This document shows positions 12,812-16,593 of a stretch of DNA of 39,964 nt, piece by piece (the stretch's first letter is position 1; the number at the start of each line of letters is the position of its first letter). A program made the translations under genes and the position numbers. The stretch is taken from assembly GCA_036771135.1 (NCBI GenBank), contig DAIPHW010000004.1, positions 1 to 39,964 on the forward strand, given 5' to 3'. Origin of the DNA: Fibrobacterota bacterium. Its GTDB lineage: Bacteria; Fibrobacterota; Fibrobacteria; UBA5070. Under the pieces are notes generated by a model, which did not search any database, was not told where the DNA came from, and worked only from the letters and a program-made list of their open reading frames with translations.

Positions 12812-12867
12812 AAGAAAAAATGACCGCAAAAATCGAAAAAACCACCTATACAAGCTGGAAATGCGGT
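12812..12867 (-). repeat. Copy A of a two-block conserved intergenic element (candidate promoter or regulator site; direct repeat of 16541..16593)
   Basis: Plus strand aag-aaaaaa-tgaccgcaaaaatcgaaaaa, variable spacer, ctggaaatgcggt. By hand alignment the left block matches copy B with one mismatch apart from a 3-nt A-run length difference. The right block matches at 12/13. The distance from tgaccgcaaaaa to the end of the right block is 35 nt in both copies. Confidence 0.6.
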
Positions 12868-12887
12868 AAGAGACTGATTTTTGGCAC

Positions 12888-12920
12888 AAAAAACCTTCCG
12901 GGAGGAGGGGGCCCGGAAGG
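12888..12920 (-). terminator. Rho-independent terminator of the PA-like gene
   Basis: Minus sense CCTTCCGGG-ccccctcct-CCCGGAAGG followed by TTTTTT. Perfect 9-bp GC-rich stem, 9-nt loop, T6, starting 27 nt after the stop at 12947. Confidence 0.8.
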
Positions 12921-12946
12921 GAGGATTCCTAGAAGATCAACCGCAG

Positions 12947-15900
12947 TTAATATTCATCGTCATCCCCAATCCATGTGTAGTAGGAATAGACATTGAAATT
13001 GGTCACAGCATGGTTTGTATTGGTGAGCGGGTTTGAGATGATCCAGAAGTTATAGGAACCATCGTTCACTTCGTAAGCAGTCCCAAGCCCTTTGCCGTTA
13101 TAATCGCCGCTCGAGTAGCTCGCCCCCATCACGGGACTGGCATAACTCGAATAGTCGTTCTTGGGGCAGGTGACCGATCCCGCACACTTGGTGCCATTGA
13201 GGTCAGCAGCCATGGAATCGTAGGACCATATCCCTGAGACCGTCCCGTATTTATCGTTTTGAGCCGTGATCCAGAAAGTGTCTTTAAGTCCCTCGGCACC
13301 GAAATCGATCAAACCGACAGCGTCGCTGTACGCATAGTTCAGGAATAGTGAATTTCCACTCCCTCCGTAACCGACACCATTGCTTGCTGAACTCACACTT
13401 TCGCTGTATTCAACCGTTCCGTTGTCGGTGATCCGTGCGTTGATCTGCTCGTCGCAATTGTCATCGCCGCTACAGTTCGCATCGTTGCCGCCGTAGCTTG
13501 GAATCTTGACGTGAATGGAAATGCGCCCCACGGCGCGCATTTTTGTTTCGCTGGTGCCAGAAAACTTGTAGTAAGTCGTTCCCGAAGTCACTTCGGTGGT
13601 GTAGCTGAATACGCGGTAAGAGTAATACGGGCTACCACCGCCCACAGCATCCTTATATGAGCAACTGCTTCCAGTCGTCGCTTGCGTAAACAAAGAGGCA
13701 CCAGAAATGGTCGTGGGAGCACTCGTCATATCCCCTAGCGTAAGGGAAGCAAGAGTGGAGTTGTTGAGGGACCTCACGATATAGTAGCCCTTGATCCGTT
13801 TGTCGAGGGAAGAGCGATCGGTAAACTTGACGTAGATGGCCGTCCGGGCATCGTCCTTGCCCAACTTGAGGTTGGTGGGCTGCAAGAGATCGGAGCGCAC
13901 CTGAAGAGAGCAGAGATAGGAATGCGTTCCATCTTCAGCGATTGACCGGAAAACGAGCTTGTTGTCGACCCGATTTAGCTTGGAAGCGAAGTCGACGACG
14001 GCTACCGGCCTATTGCTGGCGGAATCCGTCGCGTAGGTAACCGACAGCGTTGTCCCGTTCGCCACCACGTTCAGCTTCTGGGTGCTGCGCTTAAGGAATA
14101 CCCTCAGTGCCGGAAGATATGATGCACCCCCCTTCAGGGTGTCGCTAAATGCCGTAGATGGAGTCCAACTAAAGCGTGGCGTCGTCTCTGTATCTTCGTA
14201 GTAGCGAAGCGAATCCACTCCAGCAAGCGAGTCTGGAAGCAGACTGGAGCGAACTGGGTCGGAATCCAGAAGGTCGGAAACATTGTCGTTGTCCGTGTCC
14301 TTTTTCTTGGGATCGGTGAACCAAGTCACAGTGTCAGCTCCAGAGACCGAGCAGCCAGCCGCGGTGTATTGGCAATGCTTCCAGCCCATCACCTCGTGGT
14401 AATCGCTAATACCATCCTTGTCCGAGTCCGTATCATTGTCCGAAGTACCGTACAAGGCTTCCAAGTAATCGGGAAGCGAGTCTTTATCGGCATCTGCAGT
14501 GTAGAGAAGCTCCAAATTGTCACCGGGAAGAATGCTGATATTTTGAGGATTGAAATTCCGCCAAGCCCGCGTCACCTTCGTGGTGTCTGTGCTACTTGTC
14601 TGGCGAGTCCTGATCGCGAACCAATAAGCGTGAATGGCTTCACTATTCTCCACCCCGCTAATCCCGACAAGAGCTTCGGTGGAGTCGCTCGTCCAAGAAA
14701 GATTCAAGGCATTTAGAACATCGCTCACTGTCGAGGTGTAGTAATAGTCGCTGCTGGAAGTCGCATTGGGATTCTTTAGGAACTGCGTTGCTACCCGCTT
14801 TTCGACCGACGGAAGTTTTCCTGTTGGACCATAATCCAACACTACGCGCGCATCCTTGTTAGCGACGTTAGTGCTCACTGACGTTCCGTCGTAAGTAACC
14901 GCGTTGGCGTCCTGATACGTGTAAGCGATGCTTGAAAGTTGACACGTCAAGGCATCGCCGCTGAGGATCGTCTTGATGTCGTCATTCTGCAAATTGGAAC
15001 TCACCAATGAGACGACCACAGAATCACCCTTGGCGATCTTGCCGGATATGCTTGCGTCGGGGACCAAGCCGCTGAGGATCTTCCACTTATTGTTGCCGTG
15101 CACGTATATGTTAAAGCCCACGCTGGCAAGGTTGACGGCAACGTCACCGGTATTCTTCAAAGACACGCTAAAGTGTGCAATTCCACCCGTCTGATCCGTC
15201 CCGTTCGTCCATTCCTGGCCGGATGTGCTCTCATAGCTCTTCTGCGTCTCAATTGAAGATTCGCGGCTTTGTTCGCTGGTCGTGGAATAGGAATAGCTTC
15301 CAGAAATTCCTGCCGTGTAGGACGCCGTGACCTTGCAACCCTCTGTACCCGCCTCAACTCCTTCTGAAACGGACAAACTCCAACCCGCATCCAAGCTATA
15401 TGTATTGGAGTTCGTGTAGCTGGTAGAGGTCGACTGCGTCGTAGAGTACCCTGTGGTAACCTCCGACGAGGTCGTCTGAGAGGTGGACGTCGTCGTGTTC
15501 AAGCTGATGTAGGGAGCCTGAAGAATCCTTACGCTGAACGCGGGAAGGTCAGCAACCAGCGGATTCGTTCCATTGTTCGCCTCATAAGCGTCGGAACGAC
15601 CATCCCCGTCACAGTCCACATTGAGAGGGTCGGTGCCCCACACCACGGCCTCGTCGTAGTTCGAAAGCCCGTCGCCATCCCAGTCATTGGTGTCCGTGGC
15701 CGAGGCGATCTGCGTCTCGTTCACGAAGAGAATGGCTCCAGCCGTCCCCGGCTTGATGACTGAACTGCCGCTCGTGGTGGCAACATTCAATGTGCCGATG
15801 GAGCCGCCGACGGTGTCGAACTTCAGTCGTTGCACATCACTCAACACGAAAGCCATCGTCTTTTGGGTCGTCTCATAGTACAGCGTATCATGGCCGCTTG

Positions 15901-16024
15901 AAAACGAAAGTTTGTCTCCATCATGAAGGTAATAGGCCGTCTCGACGCCCTTGACGCGCACAGTAAGCCGTGCCGCGAAGGTCCATGCAGACAAGGCAAG
16001 GATCGCGATAAGAATCTTGTTCAT
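12947..16024 (-). CDS. Secreted 1025-aa protein with a protective-antigen / binary-toxin-B-like Ca-binding and pore-forming core, a second thrombospondin-type-3-like Asp-rich cluster, and FN3-like plus unknown C-terminal domains
   Basis: ATG 16024 (MNKILIAILALSAWTFAARL signal peptide) lies 14 nt after the upstream stop, with an AAGGA RBS. DxDxDG loops: DWDGDGLSNYDE, DCDGDGRSDAYE, DTDSDKDGISDYHE, DTDNDNVSD. PA-like landmarks are listed in findings. Hand-counted lines give about 47% GC. Confidence 0.8.
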   Translation of the reverse strand: MNKILIAILALSAWTFAARLTVRVKGVETAYYLHDGDKLSFSSGHDTLYYETTQKTMAFVLSDVQRLKFDTVGGSIGTLNVATTSGSSVIKPGTAGAILFVNETQIASATDTNDWDGDGLSNYDEAVVWGTDPLNVDCDGDGRSDAYEANNGTNPLVADLPAFSVRILQAPYISLNTTTSTSQTTSSEVTTGYSTTQSTSTSYTNSNTYSLDAGWSLSVSEGVEAGTEGCKVTASYTAGISGSYSYSTTSEQSRESSIETQKSYESTSGQEWTNGTDQTGGIAHFSVSLKNTGDVAVNLASVGFNIYVHGNNKWKILSGLVPDASISGKIAKGDSVVVSLVSSNLQNDDIKTILSGDALTCQLSSIAYTYQDANAVTYDGTSVSTNVANKDARVVLDYGPTGKLPSVEKRVATQFLKNPNATSSSDYYYTSTVSDVLNALNLSWTSDSTEALVGISGVENSEAIHAYWFAIRTRQTSSTDTTKVTRAWRNFNPQNISILPGDNLELLYTADADKDSLPDYLEALYGTSDNDTDSDKDGISDYHEVMGWKHCQYTAAGCSVSGADTVTWFTDPKKKDTDNDNVSDLLDSDPVRSSLLPDSLAGVDSLRYYEDTETTPRFSWTPSTAFSDTLKGGASYLPALRVFLKRSTQKLNVVANGTTLSVTYATDSASNRPVAVVDFASKLNRVDNKLVFRSIAEDGTHSYLCSLQVRSDLLQPTNLKLGKDDARTAIYVKFTDRSSLDKRIKGYYIVRSLNNSTLASLTLGDMTSAPTTISGASLFTQATTGSSCSYKDAVGGGSPYYSYRVFSYTTEVTSGTTYYKFSGTSETKMRAVGRISIHVKIPSYGGNDANCSGDDNCDEQINARITDNGTVEYSESVSSASNGVGYGGSGNSLFLNYAYSDAVGLIDFGAEGLKDTFWITAQNDKYGTVSGIWSYDSMAADLNGTKCAGSVTCPKNDYSSYASPVMGASYSSGDYNGKGLGTAYEVNDGSYNFWIISNPLTNTNHAVTNFNVYSYYTWIGDDDEY

Positions 16025-16038
16025 GCCATCGTCCTTTC

Positions 16039-16461
16039 TCAGCGCATCCACTGGAAGCGCAGCACTTGCGTAGCGGCTCCCGTGGAAGAGGTGGCTTTTG
16101 CGAAATAGATCCCGTATGGGAGTCCGCTGATGGACTGATTTGCCTGGCCGAGATTGTCTAAGGAAAGATCCCACCCTTGCATGCGGCGTCCCTCAAGAGA
16201 ATAGAGGTCGAGATGAGCTCTTGAGGTTCCCGGTATGCTCACACGGATGGAGCGTCCTTGAAAGTACAGCCCGGCAGCAAGCGAACTCCCCTTGCTTGAG
16301 GTGATTCCCGTGACAGTCCCGCTAAACGAGATGCTTTTCACAGAATCCAAGCTATAGAGGTATTGGCTCCCGCCGCCGAAAAGCGCGAGTTTCAGCGCAG
16401 CTTCGGAGGCCGCGCATGACAACAGCAACATACCCATGAAGATCATCATGGACTTACGCAT
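16039..16461 (-). CDS. Small secreted protein with a T9SS-type C-terminal sorting domain (Por_Secre_tail-like)
   Basis: Signal peptide MRKSMMIFMGMLLLSCAASEA. C-terminus AHLDLYSLEGRRMQGWDLS...SGLPYGIYFAKATSSTGAATQVLRFQWMR resembles type-A T9SS CTDs. RBS AAAGGAAC upstream of the ATG at 16461. Confidence 0.6.
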   Translation of the reverse strand: MRKSMMIFMGMLLLSCAASEAALKLALFGGGSQYLYSLDSVKSISFSGTVTGITSSKGSSLAAGLYFQGRSIRVSIPGTSRAHLDLYSLEGRRMQGWDLSLDNLGQANQSISGLPYGIYFAKATSSTGAATQVLRFQWMR

Positions 16462-16540
16462 AAATGGTTCCTTTCATGCCACCACAGGAAACACGGCAGC
16501 TATCGCGGAAATGATATGGGGAAAAGGAAAGAATTCCTAA

Positions 16541-16593
16541 AAGAAATGACCGCAAAAACCGAAAAAGCTGCTCTAGCGGCCTAGAAATGCGGT
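16541..16593 (-). repeat. Copy B of the two-block conserved intergenic element
   Basis: Plus strand aagaaatgaccgcaaaaaccgaaaaa, variable spacer, ctagaaatgcggt. Begins 2 nt after the histidine kinase stop (16596..16598) and ends 80 nt upstream of the ATG at 16461. Confidence 0.6.

Follow-up and report, generated by a model that had tools for sequence, protein, structure and literature searches.

We analysed a stretch of 39,964 nucleotides from a Fibrobacterota bacterium (contig DAIPHW010000004.1, below called the window), in which two copies, A and B, of a two-block DNA element bracket a module of two genes in the same orientation (Table 1). The element is probably the cis-regulatory target, i.e. 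an operator together with an activator-dependent promoter, of a hybrid sensor kinase encoded next to copy B. An earlier note on this DNA had taken the two copies for att-like junctions of a foreign cassette. Instead, the element resembles the operator of the adjacent ChiS-type kinase, it is kept in distant relatives and its spacer is randomised.

The two-block element and the adjacent ChiS-type kinase

On the strand of the genes, both copies read ACCGCATTTC-N17-TTTTTCGRTTTTTGCGGTCATTT. Block 1 is identical in A and B (10/10) and block 2 nearly so (22/23), whereas the 17-nt spacers, equal in length, agree at 5/17 bases, which is the random level, and beyond the blocks the similarity is no higher than background. 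That the blocks are conserved while a spacer of fixed length is randomised indicates constrained protein-binding sites and not a recent duplication. The element is made up of an inverted core (ACCGCA, complementary to TGCGGT), the spacer and a tandem TTTTnnCGG pair pointing to the downstream gene; phased T-tracts are visible in its sequence. The 23-nt block AAATGACCGCAAAAAYCGAAAAA occurs in the window only as block 2 of the two copies (0 expected, 100 shuffles, up to 3 mismatches). The combination ACCGCATTTC-N(14-20)-TTTTTCG was found on the minus strand only at 12834-12867 and 16560-16593 (0 expected in shuffles), and a search of the window for shorter degenerate versions gave no further convincing copy. 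Thus, the direct copies described in the earlier note are real.

Copy B begins 3 nt past the stop codon of the kinase gene, and 83 nt separate its end from the ATG of the downstream small open reading frame (ORF) of the module. The FISUMP gene g6, which probably starts with the GTG at 12774, lies about 45 nt past the end of copy A. The arrangement recurs in a second assembly of this organism (L001, 99.99% identical). The tandem is followed at a distance of exactly 10 nt by a hexamer, TTGCCT in copy A and TAGGAA in copy B (TTGCCA and TTGGAA at the corresponding sites of the relatives L003 and L002, see below), which may tentatively be regarded as a candidate -35 region.

Two further observations concern the surroundings of the element. 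GAATTC or GGAATTC lies within about 40 nt of it in five lineages at varying position (copy B of the window, 16533-16539; L002, 3686-3708; L003, 4913-4920; L126, 12703-12710; L133, 8706-8712), and the Vibrio Pchb probe likewise carries GGGAATTGCA directly after its second ChiS-binding site. A 51-nt direct repeat (92% identical, 5276-5326 and 8091-8141) spans the leader, start codon and initial signal-peptide codons of the FISUMP genes 4569..5360 and 5398..8154; this shared 5' region is distinct from the two-block element.

Table 1. Location of the element copies, the kinase gene, the module and the first gene of the FISUMP array in the window
Feature	Position	Strand	Characteristics
Element copy A	12818..12867	-	block 1 12858-12867, spacer 12841-12857, block 2 (TTTTTTCGATTTTTGCGGTCATTT) 12818-12840
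Element copy B	16544..16593	-	block 1 (ACCGCATTTC) 16584-16593, spacer 16567-16583, block 2 (TTTTTCGGTTTTTGCGGTCATTT) 16544-16566
ChiS-family hybrid sensor kinase	16596..19391	-	Pfam domains and match to PDB 7KPO
Small ORF, 140 aa, first module gene	16039..16461	-	signal peptide with Cys; C-terminal fold like a type IX secretion system (T9SS) sorting domain
Large secreted protein, 1025 aa	12947..16024	-	TSP3 calcium-binding repeats (Pfam TSP3_bac); central binary-toxin B fold of ~470 residues
Intrinsic terminator of the module	12888..12920	-	9-bp G+C-rich stem, 9-nt loop, U6 tail
FISUMP-domain protein g6, first gene of the FISUMP array	11521..12774	-	Pfam and NCBIfam FISUMP

The kinase comprises the Pfam domains 7TMR-DISM_7TM (residues 201-405), HisKA (434-501), HATPase_c (547-651) and Response_reg (692-803), with H443 and D740 present, followed by a DNA-binding domain (DBD) up to residue 931. 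The last ~120 residues have no match in Pfam. A phmmer search of residues 811-931 (121 aa) against the PDB detected 7KPO_A with an E-value of 1.7e-12 (query 6-93 on chain 3-88, 88 residues). 7KPO is the DBD of V. cholerae ChiS, a helix-turn-helix domain in a helix-sheet-helix version, and ChiS is a hybrid kinase of the membrane that itself binds to DNA (PMC8092284; bioRxiv 10.1101/2020.01.10.902320), more strongly when its receiver is dephosphorylated. The residues R1068, R1074, K1078, R1090 and R1092 of ChiS contact DNA and are required for its binding (PMC8092284). In the alignment R1068 and R1092 are identical in our kinase, and K1078 and R1090 are replaced conservatively by R and K, respectively. 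The DBD is kept in the orthologues P0002-P0016, which are distant (at most 55% identity), and absent from the paralogue P0022; a tblastn search with the 7KPO sequence recovers the kinase genes of the loci L001-L004, L126-L131, L133 and L046. By this C-terminal DBD, preceded by sensory and phosphorelay domains, the kinase is a ChiS-family regulator, for which DNA binding is predicted.

In L003, an ORF about 450 nt past the first kinase (5361-5501) begins like a second 7TMR-DISM kinase (GVLDLRAVDL motif). In some relatives such kinases thus occur in tandem as paralogues, making orthology harder to call.

The V. cholerae Pchb probe has the sequence GGTATTTTGACGTTAATGACGTAGGGCATCTAGGTTTTGACGTTTTTAACGGGAATTGCA, and mutation of the CGT of each TTTTGACGT abolishes ChiS binding (PMC8092284, supplementary primer table). 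The two ChiS sites consist of TTTTGACGT cores, each followed by a second repeat of about 9 nt (TAATGACGT, TTTTAACGG) (PMC8092284). They lie within 60 bp in the chb promoter as direct repeats 30 bp apart (CBS1 and CBS2), just upstream of the -35 region and in intrinsically bent DNA (PMC8092284; bioRxiv 10.1101/2020.01.10.902320). Tandem repeats of about 9 nt were detected in the window (TTTTTCGG-TTTTTGCGG), in L002 (TTTTTGCGG-TTTTGACGG) and in L003 (TTTTTACGG-TTTTCGCGG), in the same architecture and orientation to the regulated gene as in Vibrio. The cores to be compared with TTTTGACGT are TTTTTGCGG and TTTTTCGG/A in the window, TTTTGACGG in L002 (8/9 matches) and TTTTTACGG in L003.

Whole loci were scanned on both strands with a weight matrix derived from the four Vibrio 9-mers alone. 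In L002 and L003 the top match of the locus fell on the element adjacent to the kinase (20.4 bits vs 14.6 for the next match, and 16.4 vs 12.2 bits for the next distinct site, respectively). In L129, which had not been used for motif definition, ranks 2 and 3 lay in the intergenic region upstream of the kinase. In the window, the top match was a single perfect TTTTGACGT at 31790-31798 (+), within the 209-nt intergenic region 31747-31955; with one repeat only and on the strand opposite the flanking genes, it is probably due to chance.

Similar sites adjoin the kinase gene in the distant relatives L002 (TTTTTGCGGTTTTGACGGTCATTT) and L003 (with L004, TTTTTACGGTTTTCGCGGCGATTT) and also in L129; a weaker one, CACGGTTTTAACAGTGTTTT, was detected in L126. 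In L129, [ACCGACAAAACCGGTAAAA]-N17-[TTTTAACGAATTTTAACAG] is located at 2328-2498, in the intergenic region that separates a 709-aa gene from the divergent gene of the ChiS-like kinase. As in the window, an inverted site is followed by a 17-nt spacer and a direct tandem. IS66 and IS21 fragments (insertion sequences) are found after the L129 kinase. The pattern CGRTTTTNNCGGNNATTT had 0 matches in 80 unrelated kinase loci (~700 kb), which were collected from a metagenome-contig scan with generic kinase motifs (FLANT[SG]HE, GGTGLGL[SA]I) and served as negative control only. A scan of genome contigs with TTTTNCGRTTTTNNCGGTCATTT returned 38 matches at chance level, all in unrelated taxa and none in a Fibrobacterota genome. 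After the stop codon of paralogue P0022 (locus L132), the one paralogue without DBD examined, no motif was found. The DBD match, the likeness of the motifs and the paralogue lacking both DBD and motif led us to read the element as the operator of the kinase, with block 1 as an inverted core.

Points against this reading and other explanations of the element

Several results weigh against the kinase as the binding partner. R1074 of ChiS aligns to V and not to a basic residue, although the kinase has an invariant RR two positions before it. With the Vibrio matrix, copy A reaches 13.0 bits and thus rank five in the window; the window sites score modestly because their core is TGCGG and not GACGT. 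One core of the element is inverted, in contrast to the direct repeats 30 bp apart in Vibrio. The motif of L126 is degenerate, in the kinase neighbourhood of L133 no convincing site was found, with at best a doubtful one, and near the DBD-bearing kinase gene of L046, from another lineage, there is none. Furthermore, the analysis covered two copies of the element, both from the same 40-kb window, and base pairing of the inverted cores in RNA might give a hairpin.

Such a hairpin (ACCGCA...UGCGGU followed by a U-rich tract) would act at the RNA level, either terminating or attenuating transcription behind the kinase gene or forming a structure in the 5' leader of the downstream genes. Its 6-bp closing helix can form in both copies (z-scores of -2.4 and -1.9) with a U-rich run after it, copy B begins directly past the kinase stop codon, and L002 can pair GACCG...CGGTC analogously. 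However, the helix has no more than 6 bp and encloses a loop of 34 nt, and copy A directly follows a strong terminator, where a second one would have no role. No Rfam family reached its threshold in 12600-16800 (the best, anti-hemB, with 22.5 bits against a gathering cut-off of 49.5, is a chance match), and the L129 architecture occupies a promoter region between divergent genes and not the end of a gene. Paired binding sites of a protein would be expected just as much to change concordantly in their inverted cores. We regard a function of the element as RNA structure as highly improbable, the least probable of the explanations considered here.

Alternatively it might be that the element is a sigma-factor promoter, either a housekeeping promoter with a T-rich UP element or one of an alternative or extracytoplasmic function (ECF) sigma factor, and lies beside the kinase gene by coincidence. 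The T-rich tracts upstream of TTGNNN do resemble an UP element with a -35 region, and both copies precede genes for secreted proteins. A promoter of this kind would be expected to be more widespread than an element present only twice among about a dozen intergenic regions of the window, and a -10 consensus common to the copies is not evident. In addition, a matrix derived from experimentally defined ChiS sites alone picks out the sites, and they lie beside genes of DBD-bearing kinases and not beside that of the paralogue without DBD. This makes a promoter unrelated to the kinase very unlikely. A scan for sigma-70 promoter and terminator consensus sequences indicated no promoter at the element; it also missed the real terminator of the module because of its 9-nt loop. 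A literature search for a Fibrobacter promoter consensus found none. Readings of the element as a sigma-54, a Bacteroidetes-type (-33/-7) or an ECF promoter were discarded by eye since spacing and consensus did not fit.

The two-gene module, its composition and its origin

The small ORF matches the T9SS sorting-domain family TIGR04183 at threshold (23.1 bits, cut-off 23, E 5.4e-5) and has no Pfam match. Weak homologues are present at the corresponding position in L043 (E 2e-5) and L126 (E 8e-4). The large protein was modelled by AlphaFold2 with a confidence (pLDDT) of 70-93 for residues ~110-180 and 275-590. Foldseek matched the model at probability 1.0 to PDB entries 9jsg (8.5e-15), 7vnj (4e-14), 3j9c (6.5e-13) and 6sms (7e-11), with E-values ranging up to 1e-8; the matches comprise iota toxin Ib, CDTb, anthrax protective antigen (PA) and Vip1. 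The label PA-like given to it previously is therefore right at the level of the fold. A sequence search against the PDB gave no match. In Pfam only TSP3_bac was found and not Binary_toxB, PF03495 occurring only in some distant homologues.

With the B components of binary toxins (anthrax PA, Clostridium perfringens Ib, Clostridioides difficile CDTb, Bacillus thuringiensis Vip1) the large protein shares the core fold for oligomerisation and pore formation over ~420-515 aligned columns, and a Ser/Thr-rich unmodelled stretch (residues 182-274) at the place of the pore-forming, membrane-inserting loop. It differs from them by a sequence identity of 11-17%, by its TSP3 repeats and an unmodelled C-terminal region of ~430 residues, by its pairing with a small protein with T9SS-like tail and by its Gram-negative environmental host. 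No gene for an enzyme-like partner (A component) lies adjacent to the large gene.

In L043, L044 and L045 a small ORF (140, 169 and 250 aa, respectively) comes before a homologue of the large protein; these homologues share 26-28% identity with it over 47-72% of its length. A small ORF followed by a homologue of ~1000-1150 aa occurs in these three loci and in L126, and the gene pair is also present in Fibrobacter. The two genes form a genuine conserved module, as the earlier note had assumed. Directly behind the signal peptide, both module proteins, and likewise their homologues, begin with a similar strand motif, ~L.L....G....Y.L..h..h.F (also in L126, 12839-16395, and L043, 7627-8049), which hints at an N-terminal segment common to the two module proteins for docking or pairing. 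The strong terminator noted before, just inside copy A, was confirmed.

The lower GC content of the module had suggested a foreign origin. In 600-nt windows GC is 0.50-0.57 over 12.6-16.8 kb compared to 0.60-0.67 in most neighbours, so that the dip itself is real. The 47% stated previously applies to single lines of sequence only; over whole genes the values are 0.530 for the large and 0.551 for the small gene, most genes having about 0.60-0.66. Similar dips exist elsewhere in the window (9.6-10.5 kb, 31.5-33.3 kb and 37.8-39.9 kb). If the large gene is recoded with a codon usage pooled over the other genes, a GC content of 0.559 is expected (observed 0.531), i.e. ~67% of the deficit results from amino-acid composition. 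The lower GC mainly reflects the Ser/Thr/Asn/Tyr/Asp-rich make-up of a secreted beta-rich protein. At third codon positions (GC3) the deficits of the module genes are -0.079 and -0.091, and those of three ordinary genes (31956-33083, 37908-39068 and 39065-39898) are -0.085 to -0.087. The dinucleotide delta* value of the module (93) and its tetranucleotide correlation (0.67) are within the ranges of the genes for secreted proteins at 1-12.6 kb (60-111 and 0.57-0.78, respectively). Composition does not mark the module as foreign because its deficits and signatures are in the range of other genes of the window; the comparison of GC, codon usage and tetranucleotides proposed earlier thus speaks against the cassette.

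The gene order in relatives is ambiguous. L002, the closest relative with usable context (kinase 55% identical), has the kinase gene, one element and a g6-like gene without the module; the ~190 N-terminal residues of g6 are homologous to this first gene after the kinase (BLASTP vs L002:3783-5423, E 7e-27). The proteins encoded downstream in L002 were compared as possible homologues of the module and proved unrelated. In L126 (kinase 39% identical) the kinase gene is followed by a 145-aa ORF and a 1027-aa homologue of the large protein (27% identity over ~840 residues, E 3e-52), which indicates that the linkage of kinase and module is old or recurrent. L002 with its single element shows a pattern like the empty site sought by the earlier note, whereas L126 carries both genes of the module, and the relatives are distant (kinase identity of 39-55%). 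The module, present in the window and L126 and lacking in L002, is variably present downstream of this kinase family.

Insertion of a gene-gene-terminator cassette between the kinase and FISUMP genes, with duplication of the junction or promoter sequence at integration or by recombination, would fit the arrangement of L002, the lower GC of the module with GC3 about 0.08 below expectation, the module's own terminator and the greater resemblance of copies A and B to each other than of either to the L002 element. On the other hand, as stated in the earlier note itself, no integrase or transposase was found (the 23 long ORFs of the window regarded as genes, scanned against Pfam and NCBIfam), nor a tRNA gene (ARAGORN, window). 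The randomised spacer makes any duplication an old one and indicates that selection has kept the blocks. Most of the GC deficit is driven by amino acids, the GC3 deficit is common to ordinary genes and the oligonucleotide signatures are those of the neighbourhood. The best named homologues of the large protein are from Fibrobacter (the clusters P0123 and P0124 contain proteins of Fibrobacter sp.), and the module also follows the L126 kinase. Finally, the same pattern would result if the L002 lineage had lost the sequence between the direct repeats by deletion. Taken together, we consider a foreign cassette unlikely, and the claim of foreign origin was not borne out.

Compared to att-bounded genomic islets or integrative cassettes, the locus is similar in that direct repeats of ~50 nt surround a block of lower GC that is absent from the corresponding place in one relative. 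It differs from them by the lack of a recombinase gene and a tRNA target in the window, by conserved blocks around a randomised spacer, and in that the repeat is a putative regulatory site kept in relatives without the cassette. Judged from the gene orders, loss of the module by repeat-mediated deletion in the L002 lineage would be as likely as its gain by insertion in the lineage of the window. The second copy of the element may accordingly stem from an ancient duplication accompanying gain of the module, or else belong to an ancestral pair of sites, the module having been lost in the L002 lineage.

Gene neighbourhood, predicted regulation and significance

The contig is chromosomal and Fibrobacterota-like, with FISUMP and DUF4423 domains and homologues named Fibrobacterota or Fibrobacter. 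The gene order on the minus strand is TrmO, a receiver-HDOD protein, the kinase, copy B, the 140-aa and 1025-aa ORFs, the terminator, copy A, g6, further FISUMP genes, an MBG/YDG repeat protein and ribosomal protein S1. The gene g6 overlaps the next gene (8274..11528, minus strand) by 8 nt. This next gene of the array encodes an unusual fusion of 1084 aa, with four chitobiase/Fn3-associated domains, FISUMP and a C-terminal FGE-sulfatase domain (GldK/PorK-like). Five MBG (YGX-type) domains of a 923-aa protein (1936..4707) are encoded by tandem 225-nt repeats at 2812-4134 with up to 96% identity. At 25863-30124 (-) we detected genes of flagellar export, encoding FlhA (FHIPEP, E 1.8e-267), FlhF (SRP54-type GTPase) and a MinD/ParA-type FlhG-like ATPase. 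Fibrobacter in culture is described as lacking motility; judged from these genes, the lineage analysed here may be flagellated.

Under the favoured reading of the element as kinase operator, a stimulus would trigger the 7TMR-DISM sensor, and the membrane kinase would then bind copies A and B. It would activate two units: the small gene with T9SS-like tail together with the PA-like, pore-former-like gene, ending at the terminator, and the FISUMP gene array. Binding of the kinase to A and B, activation rather than repression, and the promoter positions are predictions from the DNA sequence.

Like ChiS, the kinase is a membrane-embedded HisKA-HATPase-receiver hybrid with a cryptic helix-turn-helix DBD at the extreme C-terminus. 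The sites share a T-tract and a CG core in tandem repeats of ~9 nt (TTTTGACGT-TTTTAACGG vs TTTTTCGG-TTTTTGCGG) and may likewise form two groups within ~50-60 bp, upstream of the putative target gene and pointing to it; in the window the two blocks lie within 50 nt, 45-83 nt upstream of the start codons, with candidate promoter hexamers. The combination of 7TMR-DISM with the ChiS DBD is listed by Klancher et al. (2021, mBio, PMC8092284), whose survey reported the domain from genomes of Proteobacteria. Our case differs in its phylum, which is Fibrobacterota-like, and in its 7TMR-DISM sensor, ChiS having a HAMP/periplasmic-domain sensor with a CBP partner. The core is TGCGG vs GACGT, one site is inverted, and the putative targets, deduced here from sequence, are PA-like and FISUMP genes instead of the chitobiose operon.

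The arrangement also recalls the hybrid two-component systems (HTCS) of Bacteroides, in which one membrane protein is sensor, kinase, receiver and DNA-binding output, adjoins genes for secreted or surface proteins and belongs to a host of the Fibrobacteres-Chlorobi-Bacteroidetes (FCB) group. HTCS control adjacent polysaccharide-utilisation loci by an AraC-type helix-turn-helix domain and sense with a periplasmic beta-propeller/Y_Y_Y domain. The present kinase, in contrast, has a ChiS-type output and a 7TMR-DISM sensor, and there are no Sus-like genes.

A farther-reaching picture is speculative, and we regard it as a possibility with the odds clearly against it: ChiS-type regulators would act outside the Proteobacteria with a T-tract-CG motif nearly identical across phyla, the kinase would govern a local regulon of PA-like and FISUMP genes, and the operator repeats would serve as recombination points at which cargo cassettes are swapped. 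Swapping of this kind would explain why the gene following the kinase differs, being the module in the window and L126 and a g6-like gene in L002.

For genome scanning the locus is a caution, as direct repeats around a block of low GC can be a pair of sites for a regulator, one on either side of a secreted-protein gene with biased composition. If the favoured reading is true, the repeat is not an insertion scar but the predicted operator of a member of the little-studied DNA-binding membrane kinases, and the ChiS family extends to a Fibrobacterota-like, non-proteobacterial lineage. The conservation of the motif suggested from Vibrio to Fibrobacterota would then allow regulons to be predicted from the sequence alone. 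It would also tie a regulator to an uncharacterised PA/Ib/CDTb-like protein common in Fibrobacter and thereby give a clue to the expression of this putative pore-former.

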